From an uncultured virus (IMG/VR IMGVR_UViG_3300022700_000138) (taxonomy: Duplodnaviria; Heunggongvirae; Uroviricota; Caudoviricetes), in IMG/VR virus record IMGVR_UViG_3300022700_000138: a stretch of 39,221 nt of DNA, one strand, 5' to 3'. The notes beneath the pieces are model-generated. The model was not told where the DNA came from. It was given only the letters and a program-made list of their open reading frames with translations, and made no database searches. Positions 1,716 through 36,190 of the stretch are shown here, in pieces; position 1 is the first letter of the stretch, and each line of letters starts with the position of its first letter. A program made the position numbers and the translations under genes.

Positions 1716-1941
1716 ATGGACGCATCCCAACTCATCAGATTCGGGGAAATGTCTTTTCTGTTTGCCTTTTCCTTGGGTGGTATTTACTGGACGCTGTTGG
1801 TGCCGCTGGTTCCGGTCGTCAGCAGGTCAGCGTCGACGATTGGTGCAATGAGCACTATGATTTATTTGGCAAAAAGTTCGGAGTCGTCAGGTTTCCATTC
1901 GATGGGTACGTAACCTTCTCTATTGTTCGAGTTACTGACTG
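1716..1941 (+). pseudogene. frameshifted remnant of the 3' end of the ImmA/IrrE-like gene at 8815-9435
   Basis: ~1768-1935 nearly identical to ~9258-9425; one T fewer in GCCTTTT shifts the frame. Confidence 0.7.
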
Positions 1942-1963
1942 ACGACGTAGGAGGAGCTTCAAA

Positions 1964-2155
1964 ATGGATCCAAACGTGTACCTTACGACCATGCGCGAGA
2001 TCGCGGCTTTGGTTCGTAAAGGAGAGATTGACGGAGAAGCTCACTACGACCACAACGATGTTGAAAAGTTAGTGGAATGCTTTCTTAGTTTAGATGAGTG
2101 GCTGAGTAAAAATGGATGTCTCCCTGAGGATTGGGCTTCAGATGATTTCAAATAA
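1964..2155 (+). CDS. small acidic hypothetical protein (MDPN-type)
   Basis: AGGAGG RBS; related starts at 389 and 10784. Confidence 0.7.
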   Translation: MDPNVYLTTMREIAALVRKGEIDGEAHYDHNDVEKLVECFLSLDEWLSKNGCLPEDWASDDFK

Positions 2156-2181
2156 ATGTAGATTTCTTTGTCATTACACTT

Positions 2182-2317
2182 CGGGCGAGTGGCGTACGCG
2201 CCCGTCGTAGTGGGAACGAGGGATAGACCACTATAAATGAGCGTTGAATGGACCCTCCCGGCCTGAGCAAAACTATCCCGGGCACTTGTTTTGCTTGGAG
2301 CGCCTCCTCAACGCTCG
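2182..2317 (+). ncRNA. structured RNA upstream of tRNA-Lys, copy 1
   Basis: Four helices plus GGGATAG/CTATCCC loop-loop complement; compensatory changes relative to copy 2. Confidence 0.7.
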
Positions 2318-2321
2318 CTAC

Positions 2322-2394
<73 letters not shown>

Positions 2395-2409
2395 AAAGGA
2401 GATGGTTCC

Positions 2410-3063
2410 ATGAAAGCATTTTTTACGTCAGACACCCATTTTGGTCAAGAGCGTACCCTTCGATTGTCTAGGCGTCCTTTTAATTCAGTGGACGACATGG
2501 ATCGAAAGATGGTTGAGAATTGGAATGCCTGCGTGAGTGATGACGATGCTGTTTATCACTTAGGAGATTTCGGTAATCCTGAAATGGTCGAACGTCTAAA
2601 TTTCAGCCGTCTTTATCTAGTATTGGGAAACTATGACACCGAGGACGTTCTGAGCCGCCTGGAGACAGATCCACGGGTGGCGGTACTCCCTTATCAACCA
2701 TTTCAGCTCATGCCTCCATGGGATGATGGTACGAAAGATCTTCCGCTCCTGCACCTTGTTCATGAGCCCGAGAAAGCTCAAAATCCAAGAGACTTTTATT
2801 TGTTTGGGCATATACACCAACTTCAAATGGTGAAGCGTAATGGGCTTAATGTAGGAACCGATTGTCATCAATTTCGCCCACTTTCGTATTCAACGATCGT
2901 GTTTTACTACAACGCAATAAAGCGTCATTATGACCACAATGTATTTATGGAATACCTTGGAAAACCTTCCATTGGCTGCGCAAATTGTGACTACTACGAT
3001 GATGATGGGTGCGTCATGCTAAATACCCCGAGCCCATGGTGCCTAGACTTTAGACTAAAGTAA
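2410..3063 (+). CDS. calcineurin-like metallophosphoesterase
   Basis: SDTHFG, HLGDFG, LGNYD, FGHIH motifs. Confidence 0.9.
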   Translation: MKAFFTSDTHFGQERTLRLSRRPFNSVDDMDRKMVENWNACVSDDDAVYHLGDFGNPEMVERLNFSRLYLVLGNYDTEDVLSRLETDPRVAVLPYQPFQLMPPWDDGTKDLPLLHLVHEPEKAQNPRDFYLFGHIHQLQMVKRNGLNVGTDCHQFRPLSYSTIVFYYNAIKRHYDHNVFMEYLGKPSIGCANCDYYDDDGCVMLNTPSPWCLDFRLK

Positions 3064-4225: not shown

Positions 4226-4596
4226 GGGCCCGAAATGGTTTCGACGAGGATGCATGAAGCCCTAGTTGCAACCGGAGGATTCTAGAGACCTCCTCAAACC
4301 TCTAGAGCCCATAAACGCGAACGACAACAACGTTCCCCTGGAGGTCGCTGAGGCGGCTTAAACTCCAGCGTCCTGCCAAGAGCCCTGCCTATGGCACTTG
4401 GTAAGGGCGTCGTTAAAGTAGGCTAGCTTTCCGGGAATCTTGCGACGGACGAGGAAGGCGAAAATTTCAGTCGCTATGCCGATGTTAGGTCGTTACCCTA
4501 CCTCGTGCAAAGGCGAAATGACAGAAAGTGGTAACTATGGTTGTAGAGGCTACGGTGGATCATCTTCGGACTCCGGTTCGACTCCGGACGGGTCCA
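4226..4596 (+). ncRNA. ssrA: tmRNA
   Basis: 5' GGGCCCG pairs with 3' CGGGTCC incl. G3:U; GGTTTCGAC; T arm GGTTCGACTCC; tag frame ANDNNVPLEVAEAA* at 4317-4361. Confidence 0.95.
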
Positions 4597-4674
4597 TGGA
4601 AACAACAACCGGTAAATAGAAAGGAGGGAGTCCATGCGATATTGTAGTATAATCAACCTCTAGACCTTCGCTGT

Positions 4675-6525: not shown

Positions 6526-6753
6526 ATGAGAAAAGACGCCAATACTGTAAAAAGTTGGAAAAAGCTACGTGCAGGTATCGTGTGCAAGGGCATTGAGGTG
6601 GTGGCAATTTACCCAGAGGAAAGTAGTTGGTCTGGCCCTGGGTTGAATTACCCGCAAAAGCCGACCGATGAAATTGCTTTCAGAGACTATAAAAAAGGAG
6701 AATGGTCGAGCTGCAACGCTGCCGCATTCATAAAAAGACTGAAACGTAGGTAA
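6526..6753 (+). CDS. hypothetical protein
   Basis: GGGAG RBS. Confidence 0.6.
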   Translation: MRKDANTVKSWKKLRAGIVCKGIEVVAIYPEESSWSGPGLNYPQKPTDEIAFRDYKKGEWSSCNAAAFIKRLKRR

Positions 6754-6754
6754 A

Positions 6755-6935
6755 GCCGCGAGGTGTTTACACCTCGTTATGGAGACGCGTTAAGCGCCTC
6801 CTGGCCTTCTCCCTCTCGCTTTGCGCCGTCCGGTTTAGCCGTGAGGCGGTGGCCGGCGAGGGGATACGAGTGCGGCTTCCTAGGACGTGCCGTACTCCAC
6901 CCCGCCTGAGCACGCGGTTAAACTGCTCACTTTTT
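6755..6935 (+). ncRNA. five-hairpin RNA, copy B
   Basis: Helices 6758-77, 6781-6801, 6810-64, 6868-97, 6907-29 then T-tract; motifs shared with 1413-1574. Confidence 0.65.
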
Positions 6936-6949
6936 AACTTCATCGGGAG

Positions 6950-7351
6950 ATGCCAATCATGTCCTGTGTAGATTGTGGGATTTGTGGTGAGTCGATCGAC
7001 CTTAACCAGAGTGGCTATACGACGGGCTTTGCTGTTGACGGTAAGACGTACGCACACATCGCCTGCTGGGTTCAAGACCGCCCTAATCCAACCGATGGAC
7101 TAGATGCAACTGACGTAGATTTTGACTTGCATCCCATCGTTTGGATTTGGGATGAGGTAATTGCCGGCAACAAAGTTGATGTAACTGTGCGCATGTACTA
7201 CAGCGACATGTTTTGTTGGGTAGCCGAGTTTGACGACGGAGACTTTGAAAATACACGAACAGGTATATGCAGTACAGGAATAGGGACCACCCTAGAAGCA
7301 GCAAAAAGGGAGGCCACCGGCTTTATAATGTGGCACCTCATGCGGTACTAA
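6950..7351 (+). CDS. hypothetical protein
   Basis: ORF with CGICG..HIAC. Confidence 0.6.
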   Translation: MPIMSCVDCGICGESIDLNQSGYTTGFAVDGKTYAHIACWVQDRPNPTDGLDATDVDFDLHPIVWIWDEVIAGNKVDVTVRMYYSDMFCWVAEFDDGDFENTRTGICSTGIGTTLEAAKREATGFIMWHLMRY

Positions 7352-8814: not shown

Positions 8815-9435
8815 TTGCCAAATCGCAGATCATACGACAAGCTTTCGGAGGCTATTGCCGAGGAAGCCAAGTGCCTTTTATCAAATACAGCTCCGACCGG
8901 AGCTGACCTATTTCTGTCTTGGATGGGCTCCAATCCAGAGAGTCCCGACGCACCAGGTCCGACTGACAGGGATAATGTAGGATTCGATCAACCTTTTTGT
9001 GCCGATGGTCATGCCCTGTCGGATTACATTTACGCTTTGAGGGATTTGTTGCACTTGTTGGGAGCAACTGTTTATTTACATGAGCACGATCTGCCCGTTG
9101 CGGGTCAGTGTAATTATGTGTGTAAAACAATACGAATCAATGATCCATCTGCAAAGTCAGCATTAATGACCCTTGCGCATGAAGGTGGGCACTGGTGGAG
9201 TTACTTACTCTGGTCGGGTGAAAACTTTAACGATGTGCAGCGAGAGCAGCTAGCCTTTTTCCTTGGGTGGTATTTACTGGACGCTGTCGGTGCCGCTGGT
9301 TCCGGTCGTCAGCAGGTCAGCGTCGACGATTGGTGCAATGAGCACTATGATTTATTCGGCAAAGAGTTCGGAGTGATCAGGTTTCCATTCGATGGATACA
9401 TAACCTTCTCTATTGTTCGAGTTACCGAGGATTAA
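8815..9435 (+). CDS. ImmA/IrrE-like HExxH metallopeptidase
   Basis: G.C......I.IN...TLAHEGGH..E..A; GGAGG RBS before TTG. Confidence 0.7.
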   Translation: MPNRRSYDKLSEAIAEEAKCLLSNTAPTGADLFLSWMGSNPESPDAPGPTDRDNVGFDQPFCADGHALSDYIYALRDLLHLLGATVYLHEHDLPVAGQCNYVCKTIRINDPSAKSALMTLAHEGGHWWSYLLWSGENFNDVQREQLAFFLGWYLLDAVGAAGSGRQQVSVDDWCNEHYDLFGKEFGVIRFPFDGYITFSIVRVTED

Positions 9436-9436
9436 A

Positions 9437-9817
9437 ATGCAGTTACTACCGACTATGGTCTATAAATTTCGTTATAGATTCTTGCGTAGGCTACGTAACA
9501 GATTAAGGCCCATTTTTAGGTTCAAGGAAATCTGGAATTGGGAAGCTGAAACATGCGATCGTTGTGGTAGTTGTTTTCATTTAGCCTACAATTTAAGAGA
9601 TGATGTCTGGATAAAAATAAACGGGTCCGAGACTGGTTGTCTGTGCTTCAACTGTGTAGTAGCTGTAGCTTTATTGAGAGGAATTGCGTTGTCCCGTGAA
9701 GATATAGAATTTATGTTTTTGTTCTCTGATGAAGGACAAACACCAGAACTTTCCGACCACTTGCTACCTTGGGACGAAAACTGGACAATTCATAACCACT
9801 GCCACAAGCGTAAGTAG
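9437..9817 (+). CDS. hypothetical Zn-finger protein
   Basis: CDRCG..CLCFNC; GAGG before ATG at 9437. Confidence 0.6.
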   Translation: MQLLPTMVYKFRYRFLRRLRNRLRPIFRFKEIWNWEAETCDRCGSCFHLAYNLRDDVWIKINGSETGCLCFNCVVAVALLRGIALSREDIEFMFLFSDEGQTPELSDHLLPWDENWTIHNHCHKRK

Positions 9818-9827
9818 GTGAATAAAA

Positions 9828-10103
9828 ATGGATACGGGTCTAATCGTTAGGTTGTGGATAGCATTAATAGCTCTTAGTGTACCAGCTGCTATCATTGGGA
9901 TCCCTTTGTTGGGCTCATCGCTTGATAGTTGTAACAAGTATGCTAGTCAGCTAGCCTCTTTATTTCACACTCAGAAGATCCAGTCGGTGCACAAATGTTA
10001 CCGCAGATCCAAGCAGACGCTAGTTGTAGGTGCTACGCTTTGCGTGATGGCAGCAGTCATGCTGGTCTCTGGAGCGGCTCTATTCGTGATCTATGGATAT
10101 TAA
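9828..10103 (+). CDS. two-TM membrane protein
   Basis: Hydrophobic N- and C-terminal segments. Confidence 0.6.
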   Translation: MDTGLIVRLWIALIALSVPAAIIGIPLLGSSLDSCNKYASQLASLFHTQKIQSVHKCYRRSKQTLVVGATLCVMAAVMLVSGAALFVIYGY

Positions 10104-10104
10104 C

Positions 10105-10732
10105 ATGGACACTCTGGCCAAGTTTTGTATATTGACCCATTTTGTTTTTTGGTTTGTTGTGGTTAATTATTGACACAGAGATAACCAAAACATACGCGAA
10201 ACCTGATCGGGTTGTACAAAGTGCTAGACTAGATGCCGAGCGCGTCTCCGGGCTGTTGCTCAGGCTTATTAGGTACGAACCGTTTTACGCTTTCGCATTT
10301 TTGATCTCGTTTGCTTCCATAATTATTGGCGTCGGGGCCTGGCTTGTGTATATTATGGGGAACGGGAGATATACTATGCTGGTTGACACGTATGGTCGAA
10401 TCCTCCTTAATTGTCAAGTATGCGGTGGCGAGCCAGATGACGATAACCATGGGCATACCATACGTTGTACTAGATGTAACAATATGTTACGTCCAACAGA
10501 TTGGCCATCCTTGGGTTACACTATGACCGCCCCTTCGGGAGCAAGTACATGGCAGTACATTATGAAACGGTGTTTTTGTACGTGAAACGACGATGACGAT
10601 GCTAAGAATCTGGTCTTGTTGAGCAGTGAAATGGGTCACGAAGGATGGGAGCTGACCACCCAGTACCTTCACAATGATCGTGAGAATGGCCGTAAATACT
10701 ACAATCTCTTCTTCAAGAGAAAATTATCTTGA
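10105..10732 (+). pseudogene. disrupted membrane/Zn-ribbon/DUF4177-like coding region
   Basis: ATG at 10105 out of frame with 10142-10585; frame continues past TGA 10583-85 as ..EMGHEGWEL..FFKR*. Confidence 0.5.
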
Positions 10733-10872
10733 CGATTATGGCCAAACGTATTAAATTTGAGTGGAGTTATGAAGAGTTGTACAATGGATCCAGATGCATT
10801 CCTTACGACCATGCGTAGGATCGAGGCTTTGAGAAGACTTCAAATAATGTAGATTTACTTGTCATTACAATT

Positions 10873-11005
10873 CGGGCGAGTGGCGTACGCGCCCGTCGTA
10901 GTGGGAACGAGGGATAGCCCACTATAAATGAACGCTGAATGGACCCTCCTGCCTGAGCAAAACTATCCCGGGCACCTGTTCTGCTCAGAGCCTCCTCAGC
11001 GTTCA
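10873..11005 (+). ncRNA. structured RNA upstream of tRNA-Lys, copy 2
   Basis: Homologous to 2182-2317 with compensatory substitutions. Confidence 0.7.
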
Positions 11006-11012
11006 CTACTAC

Positions 11013-11085
<73 letters not shown>

Positions 11086-11102
11086 AAAGGAGATGGGTTT
11101 CC

Positions 11103-11753
11103 ATGGAAACATTCTTTACGTCAGACACTCATTTTGGTCAAGAGCGGACACTTCAGCTCTCTAAACGCCCTTTTCATTCAGTGGACGAGATGGATCGGGA
11201 GATGGTTGAGAATTGGAATGCCTGCGTGAGTGACGATGATGTTGTTTATCACTTAGGAGATTTTGGTAATCCTGAAGCGGTTGAACGTTTGAACTTCAGA
11301 GATCTTCATCTCATAACAGGCAATTACGAGACTCCGGAGGTACTGGAAAGACTCGTCAAGGATTCGCGTGTGGATGTATACGTAGATCAGCCAGTGGCAG
11401 TGCTACCTCCAGGCAATTCTGGATTACCCACTGAGCTTCATCTAATCCACGAGCCAGAAAGAGCTGATCGCTCAACTAACTTTTACCTTTTTGGGCATAT
11501 ACACAAGTTGCAGATGGTAAAGCTTAACGGTCTAAACGTCGGAGTTGACTGCCACCACTTTCGTCCTATAGGGTACTCAACAATTGAGTTCTACTACAAC
11601 GCAATACATCGTCACTATGATCGCAATGTGTTCATGGAGCGTCTTGGAAAACTACCCATCGACTGCGCAAATTGTGACTACTACGATGGTGATGGGTGCG
11701 TCATGCCAAATACCCCGAGCCCATGGTGGTGCCTAGACTTTAGGTCGACGTAG
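11103..11753 (+). CDS. calcineurin-like metallophosphoesterase (paralog of 2410-3063)
   Basis: SDTHFG, HLGDFG, TGNYE, FGHIH. Confidence 0.9.
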   Translation: METFFTSDTHFGQERTLQLSKRPFHSVDEMDREMVENWNACVSDDDVVYHLGDFGNPEAVERLNFRDLHLITGNYETPEVLERLVKDSRVDVYVDQPVAVLPPGNSGLPTELHLIHEPERADRSTNFYLFGHIHKLQMVKLNGLNVGVDCHHFRPIGYSTIEFYYNAIHRHYDRNVFMERLGKLPIDCANCDYYDGDGCVMPNTPSPWWCLDFRST

Positions 11754-11813: not shown

Positions 11814-11887
11814 GCCCCGGTAGCTCATATGGTTAGAGCACTCGCCTTATAAGCGAGAGGTTGGCGGTTCAAGCCCGCCCCGGGGTA
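11814..11887 (+). tRNA. tRNA-Ile(TAT)
   Basis: Cloverleaf; CTCGC-CTTATAA-GCGAG. Confidence 0.9.
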
Positions 11888-12377: not shown

Positions 12378-12405
12378 TTGACGGGCGAGATATTCGGTGT
12401 ACAGT
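12378..12405 (+). promoter_or_regulatory. sigma70-like promoter
   Basis: TTGACG-N16-TACAGT. Confidence 0.55.
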
Positions 12406-12444: not shown

Positions 12445-13254
12445 TTGTTCTGCAGAAATCATATAGAAGGATTATTCAAGCCCCGTACCAACCGTATTAT
12501 TAACAAGGAGAGTCCAAAGTTGTCCACCAAATTTAATACCGGATTCTTTCTTCTTGATCGTCTGCTCCATGGCGGATTTAAACCAGGCAAAGTAGTGCTA
12601 GTCAGCGCGCCTAGGGGAGAGGGGCGCACCAATTTTGCGCTAAACATGGCGCTCAATCAAGCGAAGGATGGACGTAGGGTGGTGTACGTATCTCCTAATG
12701 AAGGATATACGATCACTCGGCGTAAAGTAGCAGCTGCGTTGTCTGGTATACCCCGTAAAGAGCTAGCAAAGCCCAGTGCTGAGATTAAACGCCATGCTCA
12801 GTTGACTACCAAACGTATCGAAAACACGTTCAAGATTTTCTGTCCTACAAACGGCTCGTTTGACGAAGCGCTAGAAGCTATGCTCGCGCTCCCTGATGGA
12901 CTGGACGTGCTCTTCTTGGACGACTTGGATGTACCTTACTGGTCCGGTAATATACGGACAAGAAACATAGTCAAGGTAAAAGAAGCAGCCGAGAAAAAAG
13001 GGATTGTAATCGTTGTAGTGGTAAGAGATAAAAGGATTGCATCTAGTGGAAAGATCCAACGGATGCCTAAAACACTCAAACAAAATGTAGAATACTGGTT
13101 GCGTATATCTCGATATTCAGACCCTTACTATTCGGTAACTGTCATGACTGATTTGGAGAATGAGCGTGGTATTCCCCTTAGGGGGTATATGGATAGTTCA
13201 AGGTACAGAGTGGCATTGAGTGTCGGATCTGATGAATTGGCCGTTCAGGGTTGA
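12445..13254 (+). CDS. DnaB/RecA-fold ATPase domain protein (degenerate)
   Basis: TGF..LD.LL.GGFKPG, APRGEGRT Walker A, LFLDD Walker B. Confidence 0.75.
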   Translation: MFCRNHIEGLFKPRTNRIINKESPKLSTKFNTGFFLLDRLLHGGFKPGKVVLVSAPRGEGRTNFALNMALNQAKDGRRVVYVSPNEGYTITRRKVAAALSGIPRKELAKPSAEIKRHAQLTTKRIENTFKIFCPTNGSFDEALEAMLALPDGLDVLFLDDLDVPYWSGNIRTRNIVKVKEAAEKKGIVIVVVVRDKRIASSGKIQRMPKTLKQNVEYWLRISRYSDPYYSVTVMTDLENERGIPLRGYMDSSRYRVALSVGSDELAVQG

Positions 13255-13278
13255 CGTGCGCAGTAATATGCGTATAGT
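13251..13278 (+). promoter_or_regulatory. sigma70-like promoter for large ncRNA/tRNA unit
   Basis: TTGACG-N16-TATAGT. Confidence 0.6.
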
Positions 13279-13285
13279 CTACAGA

Positions 13286-13699
13286 TGAAACACGGAGATA
13301 AGAGGCAGAGAATAGTTTGACATCTCCTGTGTTTTACGGTGCGGGCTTGGAGATCCATGTGTAGGTTTACGATAAGTAGTTGATATGGACGCATACCAAC
13401 TACACAGCCTGATAAAATACACTTGAATCTGAGCAACGGAACTAGGTATCATTTCCGTGTATCCGCACATTGCCTCTAGGACGTCGCAAAGTGTGACGTC
13501 GTGATACCACAAAATATGGTGAGTGTGCTGGCCTTCTTACCATAGTATTGTGAGGTGCAGTGGTTAAATTTATAGGTCAGCGGGTTTAAGGCTACTCCCT
13601 AAAAAGTGGCCAAGCTAGCTGCTACAAAAATAAGTCAACCGTAGCAGCATGGGCTACCATATGTGGTTTTACGGGGTTCCCACTATAAAAAGAACCCCG
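13286..13699 (+). ncRNA. large ornate ncRNA candidate (~415 nt)
   Basis: About ten helices and three 8-9 bp loop-based long-range complements; own promoter; ends 8 nt before tRNA-Arg. Confidence 0.75.
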
Positions 13700-13707
13700 A
13701 TAGTTTT

Positions 13708-13780
13708 GCCCCCATAGTTCAGTTGAAAGAACACAGGTCTTCTAAACCTGAAGTCCCTGGTTTGAGTCCAGGTGGGGGCG
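13708..13780 (+). tRNA. tRNA-Arg(TCT)
   Basis: CAGGT-CTTCTAA-ACCTG; atypical D and T loops. Confidence 0.88.
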
Positions 13781-13783
13781 CTT

Positions 13784-13867
13784 GCTGCTGTGATGGAATA
13801 GGTAGACATAGCGGTCTCAAAAACCGCTGGGCTGATGCCCGTGAGAGTTCGAGTCTCTCCAGCAGCA
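13784..13867 (+). tRNA. tRNA-Leu(CAA)
   Basis: GCGGT-CTCAAAA-ACCGC; long variable arm GGGC-TGAT-GCCC. Confidence 0.93.
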
Positions 13868-13905
13868 ACCAAGTGAAAATAGTAACTAGCGGACCAGGAA
13901 TCGTA

Positions 13906-14370
13906 ATGAGCAAAAAAGTCATAGGATTCATATCAGATCGCGCTACTTATGGGTGGTTATCCAACTTTCATCGTGCTCCTTTTCGTTTTGCTGGCATCGA
14001 GTGGCCAACGGTAGAACATGCTTTTCAAGCGGCAAAAAATGGGGGAAAGCAGCCATGGCTCACTAGAATAAGGAAAGCAGCAACACCTATGGAAGCTAAA
14101 AGAATTGGGCGCAAAGTGCCGTTGCGCAGAGATTGGGAACAGGTCAAAGTGGGAATAATGGAAAAGCTGGTCACAGCTAAATTCGAAGCACACGAAGACC
14201 TAATCAAAAAATTAATAGCCACCGGTAACGTAGAGATTAAGGAAGACGCGCCGTGGGACGCATTTTGGGGTACTGGTAAAAACGGTAACGGGCGCAATGA
14301 AATGGGAAAGATACTCATGCGCCTCAGGGCTAAGTTGAAACAGGATCCAAGATACGGTGCAGGAAGCTAA
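13906..14370 (+). CDS. NADAR family protein (YbiA-like)
   Basis: LSNFH, WPTVEHAFQAAK, DWEQVK..IM, D.FWG.G..G.G.N.MG.ILM. Confidence 0.93.
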   Translation: MSKKVIGFISDRATYGWLSNFHRAPFRFAGIEWPTVEHAFQAAKNGGKQPWLTRIRKAATPMEAKRIGRKVPLRRDWEQVKVGIMEKLVTAKFEAHEDLIKKLIATGNVEIKEDAPWDAFWGTGKNGNGRNEMGKILMRLRAKLKQDPRYGAGS

Positions 14371-15763: not shown

Positions 15764-15844
15764 AAACCTGTTGACTTTTGCCGGCGGTATGGTTAGAAAT
15801 AGAGTTACGGGCCCGTAGCACAATGGTCAGTGCGGCGGACTCAT

Positions 15845-16615
15845 TTGAGCCTACTTTCTCGGTTCGGACTAAGTTACTTCTGGTTGGGAAGTACTTAGGA
15901 GAAAGAGGCCAGCTATGCGTGTTAGAAGACTGAACGGCTATCGTGTGATCTACCAACCAGATCACCCGGCAGCAATGCAAAGTGACAATTGGAAAGGCTT
16001 CGTCTATGAACATATTGTCGTGGCCGAAGAATTTTTACAAAGGAGGTTAAAAAACGAGGAGGTGTGTCACCATCTCGACGGTAATCACAGCAACAACCGG
16101 AAAGAAAACATCATTGTGTTGCTGCGATCCCAACACGCAAAACTTCACGCATGGCTGAACAGTGGTGCGCCTGGAGTCGAAAGTTCCAGGTTGAAGAGGG
16201 TGAATTCAGGGAAATCTAAGGTAGGTAGAGAACACGATACTGATTGTTGCCTAACCTGTGGACGCGCCTTGAAAAAGACACAGATCAAATACTGCTCAAA
16301 CAAATGTCGTGCAAGAAAGCGACGCAAGGTCAAATGGCCGACTAAAAGAAAACTGACCGAGGATTTGAGTAAAATGTCTTATTGCGCTGTTGGCAGGAAG
16401 TACGGTGTTTCAGATAACACGGTACGTAAGTGGGCCAAGAAGCATCGCCTACTATGACAACCTTGAGCTAAGCTTCCAGTACACTGGGAGAAAGTGCAGA
16501 GACTACTGGGTTTGGGTGCAGTCCCAAGTAATACCAGCTAGAGCGCCCTCCACCCAAACAGTATGGCTGTGGGTGATGAGATAGTCCAGGGAGTGAGGAA
16601 ACTCACACAAACCGG
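15845..16615 (+). mobile_element. group I intron with homing endonuclease ORF
   Basis: P GAATTCAGGGAAA, Q CAACCTTGAGCTAAG, R GCAGAGACTA, S GAGATAGTCC; P3 GAGGGTG/CGCCCTC; terminal G at 16615. Confidence 0.9.
15915..16457 (+). CDS. intron-encoded HNH endonuclease with C-terminal Zn finger and HTH
   Basis: YEHIVVAE..L.R.L...EVCHHLDGN..NN..EN; CLTCG..YCS..C; VGRKYGVSDNTVRKW. Confidence 0.9.
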   Translation: MRVRRLNGYRVIYQPDHPAAMQSDNWKGFVYEHIVVAEEFLQRRLKNEEVCHHLDGNHSNNRKENIIVLLRSQHAKLHAWLNSGAPGVESSRLKRVNSGKSKVGREHDTDCCLTCGRALKKTQIKYCSNKCRARKRRKVKWPTKRKLTEDLSKMSYCAVGRKYGVSDNTVRKWAKKHRLL

Positions 16616-16674
16616 AATCCGAAGGTTGTAGGTTCGAATCCTACCGGGCCCAAAGTTGACCATCGAGTGCAAAA

Positions 16675-19629: not shown

Positions 19630-19752
19630 ACCCCTACTGATCGTATTTCCTCAACAAGCAAAGTAGTTAGAATATGGTGGACCCCCTACTTGTTGGCTTG
19701 GAGTGACCAGCTGGTAGCCACCATTATGTTTTAACAGCTCCGCTTCCCTCTT

Positions 19753-19786
19753 GAGCCCCAGGTAACCCCTGGGGCTCTCTTTATTT
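19753..19786 (+). terminator. intrinsic terminator
   Basis: GAGCCCCAGG/CCTGGGGCTC then TCTTTATTT. Confidence 0.8.
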
Positions 19787-19840
19787 CGCCTAGACAAGTT
19801 ACACTCTTGTAAGGATCGGTGTATCCGCAAGAGAGATGCT

Positions 19841-20554
19841 GTGTCTATCGAAGAAGCCCTTTTCGACGATCTACTCGCCGTAGCTCAGAAATATAGCCCT
19901 AAGACCAAGGTGGTACCGAAAGCCACGGTGTGGTGGCACAAGGCTATTGCAAAAATCCTGGCGATCGTAGGTAATGATAGCTACCTTGATGGTTACTGGA
20001 CGACGATAGGCTATACAATATACCAACCTGGAAAACAAGTGGACAAAAAGAGATGGTCTGTAGTCCCGCATGAGGGAGGGCACTCTGTACAGGCTAAGAC
20101 GTGGACACGCCCACTATTCGGTAGTTTGTACCTGATGGGCACCCCTGTATGGCTGCTGCCTGCTTTATTGTTTAGCTGGCCGTTTTTTGTTTGGCTGCCT
20201 TGGTGGTCAGGTCTTATATTTACTCTTTCGTTCCTTCTTCTCTCCTTTCCACCCTTCGGTTTATGCCGTGCCCACTGGGAGTTCCAGATGTACGGATTGT
20301 CGTTAGCAATTCAGTACTGGCGTGGGTACAGCATCGATAGCGGATATATCGAAGACAGAGCTAGGCAGTTTACTGGACCGGACTATTTTTACATGTATCC
20401 GTGTAAAAGTAGTGCCGAGAAAAAGTTACGTGCATACCTAAACGATGCCAAAACCGGAAAGATATTTGATGGTCCCTACGGAGAATACATGAAGGAAGTG
20501 TACAAAGTATTAGTAAAACATAATCAGGTCAGGAATCACCCGGCGAGGGCCTAA
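19841..20554 (+). CDS. membrane HExxH metallopeptidase-like protein
   Basis: PHEGGH, hydrophobic stretch, HWEFQMY. Confidence 0.7.
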   Translation: MSIEEALFDDLLAVAQKYSPKTKVVPKATVWWHKAIAKILAIVGNDSYLDGYWTTIGYTIYQPGKQVDKKRWSVVPHEGGHSVQAKTWTRPLFGSLYLMGTPVWLLPALLFSWPFFVWLPWWSGLIFTLSFLLLSFPPFGLCRAHWEFQMYGLSLAIQYWRGYSIDSGYIEDRARQFTGPDYFYMYPCKSSAEKKLRAYLNDAKTGKIFDGPYGEYMKEVYKVLVKHNQVRNHPARA

Positions 20555-21688: not shown

Positions 21689-24600
21689 ATGGCAATTGGT
21701 GACTTCCGCTTGAGCACAACTAGATACGTGCGGCCTGGAACATTTATCGGATTTGTCCAGATCCCGCGTCCGACTGCAACGCCTGACGAGGTAAGACTGC
21801 CTGGTTACGTGGCTCGTGGGCACCGCCTTGCTCAAGTGTTTTCTGTTGAGTTAGTACGCTCATACATAGAAAACGAAGAGCTAGATTTTACCACCGTGGT
21901 TCCGTATCAGGCGCAGCTAGATCACGACGCATTGAACGACCAAACGGTAGCGTTCGTCTACAAACTGAACCGCGAGGTTGTACAGAACTGGGTTTTCAAG
22001 GAGAGCAACCCCGGATCTGGGGTGTATGACCTGGTAGAAATCTCCGCGCTAGAATTCGACAAAAACGCTACGTACTACATTGATTACCAGAGTATTGAGC
22101 GTGACCGACTTGATCCGTTACCATTCGACGAAGTCCGTCAAATGGTTAATGTCGGAGATGCAGAAGGGCAGGCTAAATACGACGAATTTGTAGACTATCG
22201 AGTCGTAACCGAGTTAATCGGCGATTCCGAAGGTGGAGATCCGGATGCACTAGTTGCTGCCGATACCAACTCAGCAACTGGCGGATCGGTGTCTAGTGTT
22301 GGCGGTACGGGACCCGCCGGCGCTGTAGCCTTTAATGCGTCAAACAATGACTATGTATTCCCGTACAATATGGACTACGAACTTGAGGTACTTGCATTTA
22401 CCGCTACTACGTCAATTACCTTCGAGATAAAAATAAACCCGGCCTCTGGCGGAAACGACCAAGCAAACAAAGTACCATTTCATTCAAGTCTAGTCGGTGT
22501 AACAGGGCAAAACGCCGAGATCACAATACTATCTGGAAGTGAAACAAACGTAGCTCTAGATACCGAGTATCCATTTACTGATGGTATCCGCATTGATGTG
22601 GATCTTACTGCAGCAATTAGTGTTGGGGATACTTTCACCTGGTCTGCGTACGGACCTGGATTGGTAGAAATTGCTAGTCCACACGACAACGATAACCAGT
22701 TTGCTGAAGTACCAGACCCCGATTACGAAAATAACTTCGACCCCAGTGTTGACGAGCAGAGTTCTGGTACTATTACTGTAAGTGATAAAACTGCCTACGA
22801 TGACATGTTCAATAGGGACTACTGGTTCCGCGTGTACGATGCAGGCGGATCAACGGGTGACGGACCCAATGGAAACCGGCAGTTTACTATTTTGTGGTCT
22901 TCGTATAACGAACTTCCTTACACAGAAGGCCAGATCCAAGTAGACGAGACAAATCCTGATTCCTATACCGCAGTCTCTCTTGAGAAGGGAATATATGTCG
23001 ATGTTAATTTGGGTGCAGGTCACGACATAGACCTGCAGAACACGACAGAACTGGTTAGTGCTGCTGATGCATCGAATCTAACCACTGCGTTGGCACTGGC
23101 GGTAGATTCTAAGGCACGATACGACGACCACGACAATGATGGAACGTTTGCGCGCCACCAAGCTGGATCTACCGGAAACCACCAAACTACTATTACCCCT
23201 ACAGACGAAGCCACGCTAGTTGCGTTCTGTCAGGAACTTCAGACGTTATACTTGGAACATCGTACTGACAGTGCTATGCATATTCCAATTGATGACATCT
23301 GGACGCTGGATTCTACGATCACGCCAACAAATATCAATACGTGCATCGCATTCCTAAATGATTTCAAAGTCAAGTTTAACCGCCATGTCAAGGCGTTTAA
23401 CTTTACCCAAGGCGATGAATGGAGCATGGCTGTCAAAGCTCCACGACGGGAGTTCACTGCCAAGGACGATAGAGAATACACACTAACGCTTGGATCGGTG
23501 TCTGCTACGGACGTGTCGGTCAGTTGGTACACCGATACTTACGAAGGTAGGTTTGGCAGCTTTGTAGTACCTGCAACAGACATCTATGTCGATCTTCCGG
23601 ACAATGTACTGCTGTCATGGAGAAATTATCCTATTGGTACGTCTCCGCAACGTTTTGCGACCGGCGACAAGTTCTCGTTCTCTGGCGTAAACCGGGATCA
23701 AATTGATTGGTCGCTGGAACAGCGTACTTCGGAAACTATACAAAACGACGACATCCAGCAAGACACACTTGGTCGAATCACAGGCACACCGACAGCATGG
23801 TTTGTGACGCTTCTATCTACCCCAAGTGAGATTATCCGCGTGGAAGACGCGAGTACCGGGAATCTTATCTCATATAGCCACGTTTTAAATCCAGACGGTA
23901 GTACAACACCCTACGTAATGTTTACGAGTAGTACCAAGCCGTCCAATGACGTCATTATCTATTACTCGTATATAGGACAGGAACCTTCTCCTGGGCAGTC
24001 ATACTTTGTCACCGCATATCGATTGAGAGCTTCTACAGATTATAATCGACCAACTCTTTACCTTACACGCGAGGAGATGGCCAGAGGGCTCTCTCCAAAA
24101 ACCACGGACAACCATCTATGGCTGGCTGGTGATATTGCCTTCGACACAAACTTCTTCGGTGCTTATTTCTGCCAAGTCGAGGACAGTGCTGGAAACCAGA
24201 CGTTCTCTATTGCTGATTACCGAAAAGCAATCGATGCAACTGAAAAGGTCAAGGCTATCACCGACCTGGTAGTGGTTGGGTATTTCAATGCCGTGCCATA
24301 TGCAAAGCTTTCTATCGAGAAGATGGCGGACCCCTTCCAACGTGCCGAACGGATGCTATGGGTTGGCGCACCGGTAGGCACTGAAGTAGGTGACCCAGAC
24401 ACGCCAGACACTCTAGTGTACCTAGCCAAGAAGACACTCCAATTTCAGGGGAACAATCCTGGAAGAGGGCACATTGTCCTTGTCGGTAACTCCGAGGCGG
24501 AAAGAACAGTAGTATTGGACGATGGTACTACGACACGAGTCACTTTGGACGGCTCGTTTGTAGCTGCTTATACTGCGGCAAGAAACGCCGGATTTAGGGA

Positions 24601-25135
24601 TCCTGCTAATACCCTATTACGGAAAGAAACTGCATCGTTCGACACCATGCAGACGTTTAGCGAACCCGAGCAGGACATTCTGGGAGCTGCACGGGTTTTA
24701 TTCCTCAGAGAGATTGGTACTGGCACTTATCGATACGGTGAATCTACTACTGTAGACTCGAGTGCGCCAGACTTAGAAGAAATCAGTGCGATGAACCAGA
24801 AAATCTTTGTCACCAGAAAGGTGGCCAAAGACATGGACAACGCGTTGATTAGCATTGTTCCACCTAGTCCGGCAGCGGGCGTTGCGCTCGTTAAGGCTTA
24901 CTTAACCGACGAGCTTTCCACGATCGTTTCTTCCGGAGTGGCGGCGCCGTACGGTTCCGAAGAAAATCCCCCGACCACACGCGAGATCAGTCCTGGAACT
25001 GACTTGTACGTGTTCGTAGACGAAAATGACCGAAGGTTGTATCACTTCGGGTATTTCATCAACTTGCGGTACCCCATCAAACGGCTGTTTGGCCTTTACT
25101 CGGTGGACACACGCTTCTGGGATGCAAGGCAGTAG
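21689..25135 (+). CDS. contractile tail sheath protein
   Basis: 1148 aa acidic; N-terminal YVRPGTFI; sheath-like C-terminus (..YRYGESTT..EIS..YPIKRL); tube gene downstream. Confidence 0.85.
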   Translation: MAIGDFRLSTTRYVRPGTFIGFVQIPRPTATPDEVRLPGYVARGHRLAQVFSVELVRSYIENEELDFTTVVPYQAQLDHDALNDQTVAFVYKLNREVVQNWVFKESNPGSGVYDLVEISALEFDKNATYYIDYQSIERDRLDPLPFDEVRQMVNVGDAEGQAKYDEFVDYRVVTELIGDSEGGDPDALVAADTNSATGGSVSSVGGTGPAGAVAFNASNNDYVFPYNMDYELEVLAFTATTSITFEIKINPASGGNDQANKVPFHSSLVGVTGQNAEITILSGSETNVALDTEYPFTDGIRIDVDLTAAISVGDTFTWSAYGPGLVEIASPHDNDNQFAEVPDPDYENNFDPSVDEQSSGTITVSDKTAYDDMFNRDYWFRVYDAGGSTGDGPNGNRQFTILWSSYNELPYTEGQIQVDETNPDSYTAVSLEKGIYVDVNLGAGHDIDLQNTTELVSAADASNLTTALALAVDSKARYDDHDNDGTFARHQAGSTGNHQTTITPTDEATLVAFCQELQTLYLEHRTDSAMHIPIDDIWTLDSTITPTNINTCIAFLNDFKVKFNRHVKAFNFTQGDEWSMAVKAPRREFTAKDDREYTLTLGSVSATDVSVSWYTDTYEGRFGSFVVPATDIYVDLPDNVLLSWRNYPIGTSPQRFATGDKFSFSGVNRDQIDWSLEQRTSETIQNDDIQQDTLGRITGTPTAWFVTLLSTPSEIIRVEDASTGNLISYSHVLNPDGSTTPYVMFTSSTKPSNDVIIYYSYIGQEPSPGQSYFVTAYRLRASTDYNRPTLYLTREEMARGLSPKTTDNHLWLAGDIAFDTNFFGAYFCQVEDSAGNQTFSIADYRKAIDATEKVKAITDLVVVGYFNAVPYAKLSIEKMADPFQRAERMLWVGAPVGTEVGDPDTPDTLVYLAKKTLQFQGNNPGRGHIVLVGNSEAERTVVLDDGTTTRVTLDGSFVAAYTAARNAGFRDPANTLLRKETASFDTMQTFSEPEQDILGAARVLFLREIGTGTYRYGESTTVDSSAPDLEEISAMNQKIFVTRKVAKDMDNALISIVPPSPAAGVALVKAYLTDELSTIVSSGVAAPYGSEENPPTTREISPGTDLYVFVDENDRRLYHFGYFINLRYPIKRLFGLYSVDTRFWDARQ

Positions 25136-34777: not shown

Positions 34778-36190
34778 ATGCAGCACCGAATCGATCCATG
34801 GGAAACCAAAGCCTGTAAAATTTTCAAAAATGCTGTGGTACACAAGGTCCTGGCGCGTACGGCCGGGCTCCCACGCCTACCACAATACGTGGTGGAGTAC
34901 CTGGTAGCAAACCACGTCGACGCACGTAATCCCCAAAAAGATCTTAACAAGGTTCGAGAGCGCGTAGCAGAGGTTCTGCCCGAAGCCGAAAAGCGTGAGC
35001 TTTTCAAGGCGGAGCTAGTAAACAAGGGCAAAATCCTAGTATTCGACAAAATGGACGGTCACGTAGACATGAAGTCTGGGGAGTTCCTCGGTACACTAAC
35101 ATACCTCGGTTTGCAGGGTGTTACGGTACCGAAAAAGATGGTAAAACGAATTCCCCGACTGCTCACAGGTGGTGCGTGGGGCGCCATCGAACTACGGTAC
35201 TACCCTGGACAAGGCAAGAAAAAGGGAGTCACCGAAGCCTATGCAATGACTGCGTTCCAACAGGATGCAGCACTACGTAAGTACGTCAAGAATCGTAAGC
35301 ATTTCACTACGGATGAATGGGTAGACCTACTCCTGTCCTCTGTTGGGTATGCCCCAAATGCGTACACGGATTTTCGGACGAAGTTGCTTCTACTCTTGCG
35401 CTTGCTTCCGGCTGTGGAGCCAAACTACAATAGCGTAGAACTTGGACCCCGACAAACGGGAAAGACGTACCTCCTACGAAACTTCAGCCCCTCTGTCTAC
35501 ACAGCGTCGGGCGCACAAGTCACGGCCGCCAACCTATTCGCTAATGCAGCAACTGGAATGCTGGGTGTAATCGGTACTTACAAGATTGTAGTGCTAGATG
35601 AGATCGCCCACACCAGGTTCGATGGTCCGTCAACAGTGTCGGCTATGAAAGACTACATGGAATCTGGACAATTTGCGCGTGGTGGTCGGACCTACTCGTC
35701 AGATTCCAGCATCGTGCTGGCTGGTAACTTGGACGTGGCCGGGATGCAACCTTCCAGTATGTACCGCCACCTGTTCGAGCCATTGCCTAACGATTTGGAT
35801 GACACCGCATTTCTGGATCGGATCCATGCTTATCTTCCCGGTTGGGAGATTCCTAAAATCACCGCGGAGTCTATCAGTACTGGATATGGTTTATCGGTCG
35901 ACTACCTGAGCCAGATCCTCCAAAACTTGCGAGATCGGGACTTCAGACATACTTGCTATGAGCTGGACATGCAACAGTTTATACCATATGCGACCCATCG
36001 GGATGTCGTAGCTGTGGAAAAGACAGTATCGGGGCTCATGAAACTGCTATACCCAGACGGTGAGTACACACGGCAAGAACTGGCGCAGGTATTGGGGTTT
36101 GCGGCAGAACACAGACAGCGTGTTACAGAGCAGTTAGCGGAGATGTCCCCTGGTGAATTTCAAAAATACAGACGGAGCACCGCTTCGTGA
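34778..36190 (+). CDS. brxL: BrxL-like AAA+ ATPase lacking the Lon-like C-terminal domain
   Basis: LLTGG.WG, ELGPRQTGKT, LDEIA, MKDYMESG.F.RG, DTAFLDRIH.Y.PGWEIPK. Confidence 0.85.
   Translation: MQHRIDPWETKACKIFKNAVVHKVLARTAGLPRLPQYVVEYLVANHVDARNPQKDLNKVRERVAEVLPEAEKRELFKAELVNKGKILVFDKMDGHVDMKSGEFLGTLTYLGLQGVTVPKKMVKRIPRLLTGGAWGAIELRYYPGQGKKKGVTEAYAMTAFQQDAALRKYVKNRKHFTTDEWVDLLLSSVGYAPNAYTDFRTKLLLLLRLLPAVEPNYNSVELGPRQTGKTYLLRNFSPSVYTASGAQVTAANLFANAATGMLGVIGTYKIVVLDEIAHTRFDGPSTVSAMKDYMESGQFARGGRTYSSDSSIVLAGNLDVAGMQPSSMYRHLFEPLPNDLDDTAFLDRIHAYLPGWEIPKITAESISTGYGLSVDYLSQILQNLRDRDFRHTCYELDMQQFIPYATHRDVVAVEKTVSGLMKLLYPDGEYTRQELAQVLGFAAEHRQRVTEQLAEMSPGEFQKYRRSTAS

Follow-up and report, generated by a model that had tools for sequence, protein, structure and literature searches.

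The window analysed here (39,221 nucleotides (nt) of IMG/VR record IMGVR_UViG_3300022700_000138, the whole stretch of DNA at its full length) is part of an uncultured large phage and carries, at positions 13286–13699 of its plus strand, a stretch that an earlier note had read as an ornate, multi-pseudoknot non-coding RNA. What is observed at this locus is the absence of an open reading frame (ORF), a promoter motif, adjacency to transfer RNA (tRNA) genes, and exceptional, sharply defined folding; on the evidence of this single sequence, the analysis supports a large non-coding transcript, predicted to fold strongly and sharply, between its own promoter and a tRNA pair. The elements of this candidate RNA and its immediate neighbors are as follows.

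12445–13254, plus strand: upstream gene, small RecA/RadB/KaiC/DnaB-C-like adenosine triphosphatase (ATPase), with its own promoter at 12378–12405
13251–13278, plus strand: sigma-70-like promoter TTGACG-N16-TATAGT, 10/12 consensus matches
13286–13336, plus strand: 5′-terminal hairpin H1, present in the minimum free energy (MFE) and centroid structures and starting at the predicted first transcribed base
13339–13468, plus strand: predicted multi-branched domain, with the same helices in the earlier note's list, the MFE structure and the centroid
13480–13500, plus strand: hairpin H6, GACGUCGC / GUGACGUC, from complementarity and folding
13500–13671, plus strand: predicted 3′ domain with two competing folds, from folding and alternative pairings
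13672–13699, plus strand: 3′-terminal hairpin H10, a stem of 8 perfect pairs with CCACUAUAAAAA in its 12-nt loop
13708–13781, plus strand: tRNA-Arg(UCU), anticodon tct, Rfam tRNA model 66.3 bits, also called by ARAGORN
13783–13871, plus strand: tRNA-Leu(CAA), 1 nt past tRNA-Arg, called by Rfam and ARAGORN
13906–14370, plus strand: downstream gene, NADAR-domain protein, Pfam NADAR 3.7e-34

Coding capacity, promoter and predicted transcript ends

No credible ORF lies in the stretch, as had been claimed: plus-strand frames taken from stop to stop across 13255–13707 span 32 codons at most, and reassignment of any single stop codon lengthens the longest of them to no more than 72 of ~150 codons. 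The promoter likewise sits just upstream at 13251–13278, where it overlaps the last codons of the ATPase gene (the stop codon of which ends at 13254), and it proves to be one copy of a recurring motif, TTGACR-N16/17-TAYAGT, with four plus-strand copies in the window (903, 1634, 12378 and 13251) and none on the minus strand. Shuffled sequences hold a mean of 0.03 copies and 0/100 reach four, a contrast that is inflated because the pattern was written after the hits had been seen. Three of the copies sit 33–50 nt ahead of ORF starts (988, 1716 and 12445), the behavior that would be expected of a real promoter class; the fourth, at 13251, is directed into the ORF-free stretch.

Judged from the promoter, transcription would begin at ~13285–13287, such that the first hairpin opens at the predicted +1; at the other end the final hairpin closes at 13699, 8 nt ahead of the tRNA-Arg gene that starts at 13708, which agrees with the spacing given in the earlier note. 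A terminator scan called no terminator-like site on the plus strand between 13699 and 14100, the hairpin at 13672–13699 itself going uncalled because its loop is longer than 8 nt and its T run counts only 4; after this hairpin come AUAGUUUU and then the tRNA. The NADAR gene is possibly carried on the same transcript as the candidate RNA and the tRNAs.

Predicted fold and proposed pseudoknots

The candidate fold is both stable and sharply defined. The 414-nt stretch has an MFE of −147.8 kcal/mol (z-score (z) −5.77, with 0/100 dinucleotide shuffles as stable; a repeat computation by a separate script gave z −5.2 over 60 shuffles), its centroid is nearly identical to the MFE structure, and its ensemble diversity of 32 compares with 99 ± 25 in shuffles (shuffle minimum 36), 0/60 being as low, in keeping with the claim of structure beyond that of shuffled controls. 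The two halves fold independently, the 5′ half (13286–13478) reaching z −3.04 (1/200 shuffles as stable) and the 3′ half (13479–13699) z −7.02 (0/200).

A sliding scan of positions 1–22800 (300-nt windows, step 150, 20 shuffles each) places 9 of its 151 windows at z ≤ −3.4, and the candidate accounts for four of them, which follow one another (13201–13950, z −3.4 to −4.4). The other five are 1351–1650 (−5.25), two within 6601–7050, 19651–19950, which holds a strong terminator, and 22051–22350, which falls inside an ORF. Controls gave milder values: z −1.55 for 10586–11012, the only other plus-strand ORF-free gap of at least 250 nt in the first 20 kb; −0.56 and +0.96 for two gaps without ORFs in the related phage G006, one of which immediately precedes a tRNA; and −1.83 for the window's genuine transfer-messenger RNA (tmRNA). 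A second stretch without a convincing gene, 1320–1633, lies directly after a tRNA-Pro gene and ends at the promoter copy at 1634; it has z −3.47 overall and −5.25 for 1351–1650, with an ensemble much looser than that of the candidate (centroid −74 vs MFE −114), and its flanking gene and the tRNA-Pro are syntenic in G006.

The ten helices listed in the earlier note are all complementary as described there, eight being continuous with 0–1 mismatch and some G–U pairs, and two (13286–99/13322–36 and 13508–23/13536–52) requiring a bulge or internal loop. The 5′ strand of H1 has an alternative partner at 13451–13463, to which it is 85% complementary. The multi-branched domain is closed by 13339–45/13462–68 and 13345–51/13428–34 and bears a long hairpin (13376–87/13392–403) as well as one at 13436–41/13453–58. 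Two architectures compete in the 3′ domain: in the MFE structure, 13500–13524 closes with 13650–13671 and 13526–34/13574–82 is nested, and in the fold of the earlier note, a hairpin at 13508–23/13536–52 is combined with a pseudoknot, the hairpins 13590–95/13606–11 and 13618–25/13641–48 being present in both.

Within the candidate, GTTTTACGG occurs twice (13331–13339 and 13666–13674) and nowhere else in the window; one copy closely follows the first hairpin and the other closely precedes the last, and by our estimate chance alone would yield ~0.3 repeats of this sort in 414 nt. The last hairpin has as its loop a copy (at 13680) of CCACTATAAA, which is found three times on the plus strand (2228, 10919 and 13680), each time in or beside a hairpin upstream of a tRNA. 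Only two of these copies are independent because two of the three belong to a segmental duplication (described below), and a reading of CCACTATAAA as a T4-late-like promoter was dropped for want of independent copies.

Three pairings between a loop and a distant strand had been put forward as pseudoknots, and the complementarities do exist: 7 base pairs (bp) at 13301–07/13471–77, 7 bp at 13445–51/13502–08, and 9 bp including 2 G–U at 13526–34/13574–82. They are, however, no more than chance provides. When the helices of the earlier note were kept and the unpaired bases permuted (2000 trials), at least two perfect 7-mer matches between loops and unpaired strands arose in 11.5% of trials, and at least one in 26%. 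Only 13301–07/13471–77 can coexist with the best nested fold, which it costs little; the remaining two pairings compete for bases that the MFE structure pairs in nested helices, and 13526–34/13574–82 is there an ordinary nested helix. Energy totals with pseudoknots (duplex energies added) run from −147 to −157 kcal/mol vs −147.8 kcal/mol for the nested fold before any pseudoknot penalty, and would be similar to it once that penalty is allowed for. Given the permutation frequency, the conflict with the nested fold and the similar energies, pseudoknots in the candidate RNA are possible but not established.

Known RNA families and relatives

A cmscan search against the 4227 families of Rfam 15 gave nothing at gathering score in 13286–13699, and at E up to 10 the region 13100–13900 gave just the two tRNAs and five noise matches (E 3–8, 10–17 bits), three of which fall inside the candidate stretch. 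No RNase P family was among the matches at this threshold over 13100–13900, nor did Rfam show a riboswitch or T-box signature there; the gathering-score search of the whole window recovered the true tmRNA at 156.9 bits and the group I intron at 73.3 bits. The GOLLD, ROOL and OLE models gave no match in the candidate even at E 10, a negative for which these three models had no positive control. Membership of GOLLD, ROOL, OLE, RNase P or another Rfam family, which the earlier note had proposed to check by cmscan, thus found no match. A tmRNA paralogue was rejected, as ARAGORN and Rfam call the true tmRNA at 4226–4599 and not the candidate, and an alignment of the candidate with the window's tmRNA yields scattered identities and no shared block. 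So too was a group I intron: the only match lies at 16143–16608, and the candidate is flanked by an intact stop codon and an intact tRNA.

Large structured RNAs beside phage tRNA islands (GOLLD, ROOL, T4 RNA C/D) have puzzled the field for a long time: they are abundant and elaborate, and we know of none with an established job. ROOL measures ~580 nt, and T4 RNA C/D, at ~120–140 nt, are excised from the same precursors as tRNAs. One account describes GOLLD and ROOL as RNAs of phages and prophages that often lie near tRNA islands, contain multiple pseudoknots and assemble into RNA-only cages, GOLLD being often >800 nt and sometimes covalently linked to tRNAs in a precursor, and lists GOLLD, ROOL and OLE as families in Rfam (10.1101/2024.12.08.627333). 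T4 RNA C and RNA D are given elsewhere as non-coding RNAs from the T4 tRNA gene cluster, with roles unknown to that source (PMC3014915). The candidate has the marks of the GOLLD/ROOL kind in that it is phage-encoded, beside tRNA genes, large and protein-free, and its predicted fold is elaborate; it differs in being shorter (~415 nt), in being a single sequence, hence with no covariation-backed structure, and in having no sign of multimer-forming loops (the 8-nt palindrome AGCUAGCU at 13612–13619 is, by estimate, expected by chance). With T4 RNA C/D it shares its placement among phage tRNAs, but the T4 RNAs are much smaller, no sequence relation to them would be expected, and a promoter of its own stands directly before the candidate. 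RNase P RNA and tmRNA resemble it in length (350–420 nt), in long-range or pseudoknot-type pairings and in a functional link to tRNA, whereas the 5′ and 3′ ends of the candidate are unpaired with each other and form separate local hairpins, and, unlike tmRNA, it has neither a tRNA-like domain nor a tag reading frame. H1 recalls ompA-type 5′ stem-loops in its position at or beside the first transcribed base, although those are short mRNA elements and H1 is one part of a 420-nt ORF-free RNA. By its setting the candidate would be an orphan of the GOLLD/ROOL/T4 RNA C–D kind rather than a member of those families. Of the earlier proposal that it belongs to such a class or a new one, the large folded non-coding candidate between promoter and tRNA pair therefore stands, and membership of an Rfam family does not.

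Homologues, which the earlier note had envisaged collecting from phages, were found in none of GenBank phages, IMG/VR, JGI metagenomes, GTDB, 16 phage records and 51 loci. Against GenBank phages, blastn returned nothing at 1e-5 and, at E up to 10, four records (two phages, each twice) with 8% query coverage and E 5. Exact window-derived patterns had 0 matches in IMG/VR, JGI metagenomes and GTDB genomes, and scans for the adjacent tRNAs in IMG/VR also returned 0; the NADAR gene as anchor led to one unrelated high-GC locus lacking a tRNA, and a phosphoesterase anchor to 8 loci, all lacking the RNA. A search for paralogues elsewhere in the window gave only 10–23 nt matches (best E 0.16).

As a clade marker we used a protein of 1148 amino acids (aa; 21689–25135) with 49 homologues; the top one, located on a contig of 8.7 kb, has 79% identity, and others, on contigs as long as 350 kb, have ≤58%. 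The protein's sole match in GenBank is Virus Rctr197k (31%). We therefore assign the phage to an environmental huge-phage clade that has no close sequenced relative. Marker loci were gathered from IMG/VR (13), metagenomes (51) and GTDB (1, already in the set), together with Rctr197k. On their flanks nhmmer and blastn did not find the RNA, and BLAST against whole records produced only 13–24 nt matches (E 0.09–3). Two single-sequence covariance models of the candidate, R1 and R2, matched 0/16 whole phage records; over the 51 metagenome loci and the window they gave three weak non-self matches (9.7, 8.5 and 7.2 bits; E 2.4–9.8) and a palindromic echo of 23.9 bits (E 0.0003) on the minus strand of the window itself, and, with filters off, nothing better than E 0.35 across the closest large relative's 55-kb tRNA region. 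A 21.3-bit hit (L066) was discarded, since on its strand it falls within an ORF of 668 aa and a large number of its base pairs are disrupted; in Rctr197k, an interval of 387 nt that precedes tRNA-Arg(tct) was set aside as well, as it holds an unannotated tRNA and has no similarity to the candidate. The marker protein also occurs (at 44%) on a 78,067-bp contig (L093/L028/L060) filed in GTDB/NCBI under a Patescibacteria metagenome-assembled genome, which may reflect a phage contig that was binned with bacterial sequence, or may point to the host.

The relatives with reachable relevant DNA are ≤58% identical in the marker protein, those at 72–80% (L042, L055 and L056) lying on contigs of 2–10 kb that end short of the syntenic site, and the window's own tmRNA and intron had no DNA match among 92 loci (~1 Mb). 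Because the relatives are distant and the tmRNA and intron go unmatched too, the blank for homologues shows only a lack of long-range conservation. No second representative was found from which covariation, or a new class, could be argued.

Interpretation and genomic setting

The explanation that we favor, with moderate confidence, is that RNase P frees a hairpin-capped leader RNA, driven by the promoter, from a tRNA precursor as a stable, stand-alone molecule. The phage promoter at 13251–13278 would start the transcript at ~13286, the first ~420 nt of which would adopt a compact, well-defined non-coding fold in which hairpins at the 5′ and 3′ ends enclose a branched domain and a highly stable 3′ domain, and transcription would continue through tRNA-Arg(UCU) and tRNA-Leu(CAA). 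Cleavage by host RNase P where tRNA-Arg begins (13707/13708) would release the ~420-nt leader, a step that we infer from the known 5′ maturation of tRNAs and the 8-nt spacing. The order of promoter, RNA, 8 nt and tRNA, with no called terminator between, fits processing of the T4 RNA C/D type. Terminal hairpins protect RNAs from end-dependent decay, and those at the first transcribed base (for example, in the ompA 5′ untranslated region) guard against decay that depends on the 5′ end; hairpins at both ends would likewise shield the released RNA from end-dependent nucleases. Because such hairpins lie at the start and near the cut, a stable stand-alone RNA is favored over a cis leader or a relic. 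The product would be a phage non-coding RNA made in step with the phage tRNAs, and it might act in trans.

Several findings weigh against this explanation. The pseudoknot pairings are not above chance (P about 0.1), and the 3′ domain has its two competing architectures. The reverse complement of the candidate folds well too (z −5.35, 19 kcal/mol less stable than the plus strand), so that thermodynamics alone does not fix the strand, and orientation is assigned mainly from the promoter and the shared direction of the surrounding genes and tRNAs. No search returned a homologue, and neither covariation nor conservation can therefore be called upon. In G006, the closest large relative, an orthologue (63%) of the 77-aa gene just upstream of the ATPase is present, whereas ATPase, RNA and gap are all missing and ORFs run right up to tRNA-Arg(tct); the ATPase–RNA–tRNA module is, by this absence, lineage-specific and could be young or dispensable.

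Among other explanations, a purely cis-acting leader for the downstream genes, with no life of its own after cleavage, is possible but doubtful. It might be a platform for RNase III/RNase E processing, a 5′ stabilizer of the tRNA precursor, or an attenuator in which the hairpin at 13672–13699, its U run and alternative pairings might decide whether transcription reads on into the tRNAs and the NADAR gene. The position between a promoter and genes to be controlled suits such a leader, as do mutually exclusive pairings (13287–99 with 13322–36 or 13451–63; 13509–20 with 13536–52 or 13656–67) and the succession of last hairpin and AUAGUUUU; yet 420 nt of very stable and sharply defined structure goes far beyond the needs of known tRNA leaders and attenuators, the ensemble shows unusual uniformity and no bistability, the terminal hairpin, given a loop of 12 nt and a U run of just 4, escaped the terminator scan, and a riboswitch or T-box signature is missing from the Rfam results. 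We think it unlikely that the stretch is a non-functional spacer, that is, the remains of a decayed gene or mobile element gained with the orphan ATPase, with hairpins that are fortuitous or relics. For neither the RNA nor the neighboring ATPase was a relative found, the closest large relative lacks the module, a recent segmental duplication and a mobile intron mark the region as one in flux, and one sliding window inside a long ORF also reaches z −4.14, all of which would suit a spacer. It sits poorly with four consecutive low windows, with z −5.8 for the whole and −7.0 for the 3′ half, with an ensemble tighter than 60/60 shuffles, with other ORF-free gaps that fold near shuffle level, and with a copy of the phage promoter motif that points into the stretch.

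The remaining explanations conflict more directly with the data. Inverted repeats acting in the DNA itself, as an origin, packaging site or protein-binding array, would be in line with the many inverted repeats and with a complementary strand that folds well; we hold this to be very improbable, since there are no iterons or direct-repeat arrays (the sole direct repeat being one 9-mer, present twice), the cumulative GC skew makes no turn here, several helices use G–U pairs that are mismatched on the other strand, and the plus strand is the more stable by 19 kcal/mol. Scarcely credible is a very divergent member of a known large family (RNase P RNA, a second tmRNA, a group I/II intron, GOLLD, ROOL or OLE). 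The ~415-nt length, long-range pairings and tRNA-side position do recall RNase P RNA, tmRNA, GOLLD and ROOL, and the phage has a tmRNA and a group I intron elsewhere, but the Rfam search that scored both of those highly returned nothing for the candidate at gathering score, and noise alone came up at E up to 10; the candidate has no end-to-end acceptor-like pairing, no T-arm and no block shared with the window's tmRNA. Just as hard to credit is a protein-coding stretch, be it a 77–85-codon minus-strand frame (13279–13536) or a plus-strand gene with a recoded stop. The minus-strand frame is open for 85 codons, but it has no Pfam match at E up to 1, 0 proteins in a 5.8-billion-cluster collection share three 5-residue words with it, and the long frames bearing family matches in six-frame ORF lists of both strands are on the plus strand; for the plus strand, reassigning any one stop opens less than half of the codons.

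The stretch is, then, a candidate for a new non-coding RNA of phages, of the kind seen at tRNA islands, and an orphan for now. The labels "multi-pseudoknot" and "ornate class" exceed the evidence, and the single-sequence signal is real and unusual and was located correctly in the earlier note; with one sequence to go on, this is a well-supported candidate and not a demonstrated RNA. If the release of a stable leader RNA is correct, the locus would add to the tRNA-island RNAs a compact further example with a clear promoter, defined ends and simple release, in a clade of huge environmental phages equipped with tRNAs, a tmRNA and a mobile intron of their own, and would suggest that such RNAs arise repeatedly where phages build translation-related gene islands. 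The claim is cheap to test because 420 nt and a sigma-70-like promoter ease transcription, probing and imaging. A bolder extension, which we regard as improbable, would make it the founding example of a new class of large phage RNAs that fold autonomously, are made together with tRNAs, are freed by RNase P and are capped by hairpins, with relatives hidden in poorly assembled environmental huge phages; in the manner of ROOL and GOLLD, such an RNA would function as a particle built of RNA alone, or else as a sponge or decoy that takes up a host factor in contact with tRNA, such as a tRNA-targeting defence nuclease or the ribosome.

The wider window holds 14 tRNA genes, the tmRNA and the group I intron within its first 18 kb (Rfam cmscan, ARAGORN), and cmscan over the whole window returned 16 matches at gathering score. 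Most of its proteins have no Pfam or PHROG family match, and phage-family proteins are present. The ATPase upstream of the candidate, recorded on a 163,221-bp contig, matches Pfam KaiC (5.2e-08) and DnaB_C (4.2e-06) and, in the PDB, RecA (3.8e-13) and RadB (6.9e-05); a search of the 5.8-billion-cluster protein collection found only the protein itself. Its Walker A-like loop reads GEGRT from the translation, with arginine at the usual lysine position.

The tmRNA at 4226–4599 is phage-encoded, with a predicted tag of ANDNNVPLEVAEAA, and 5/5 related phage records searched had no full-length tmRNA above the Rfam model cut-off. The segmental duplication (1767–3063 / 9257–11753) includes two identical tRNA-Lys(ttt) genes (2322–2394 and 11013–11085); identity is 100% over 88 nt around tRNA-Lys, 76% between phosphoesterase paralogues and 77–95% in upstream blocks. 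A tRNA-Ile gene with the uncommon anticodon TAT lies at 11814–11887, in a run with tRNA-Gln and tRNA-Val. Another tRNA gene (15809–16652) is interrupted in its anticodon loop by a ~770-nt intron (771 nt by ARAGORN with introns allowed); reading across the exon junction gives the anticodon CAU, and the ARAGORN label differs. The Rfam group I match (16143–16608, 73.3 bits) lies in this intron, as does an HNH endonuclease ORF (15915–16457, PHROG 8e-30). Farther along, a phage gene at 34778–36190 encodes BrxL-like Lon protease domains of the BREX defence system (BrxL_ATPase 6.8e-106, BrxL_N 3.2e-24).

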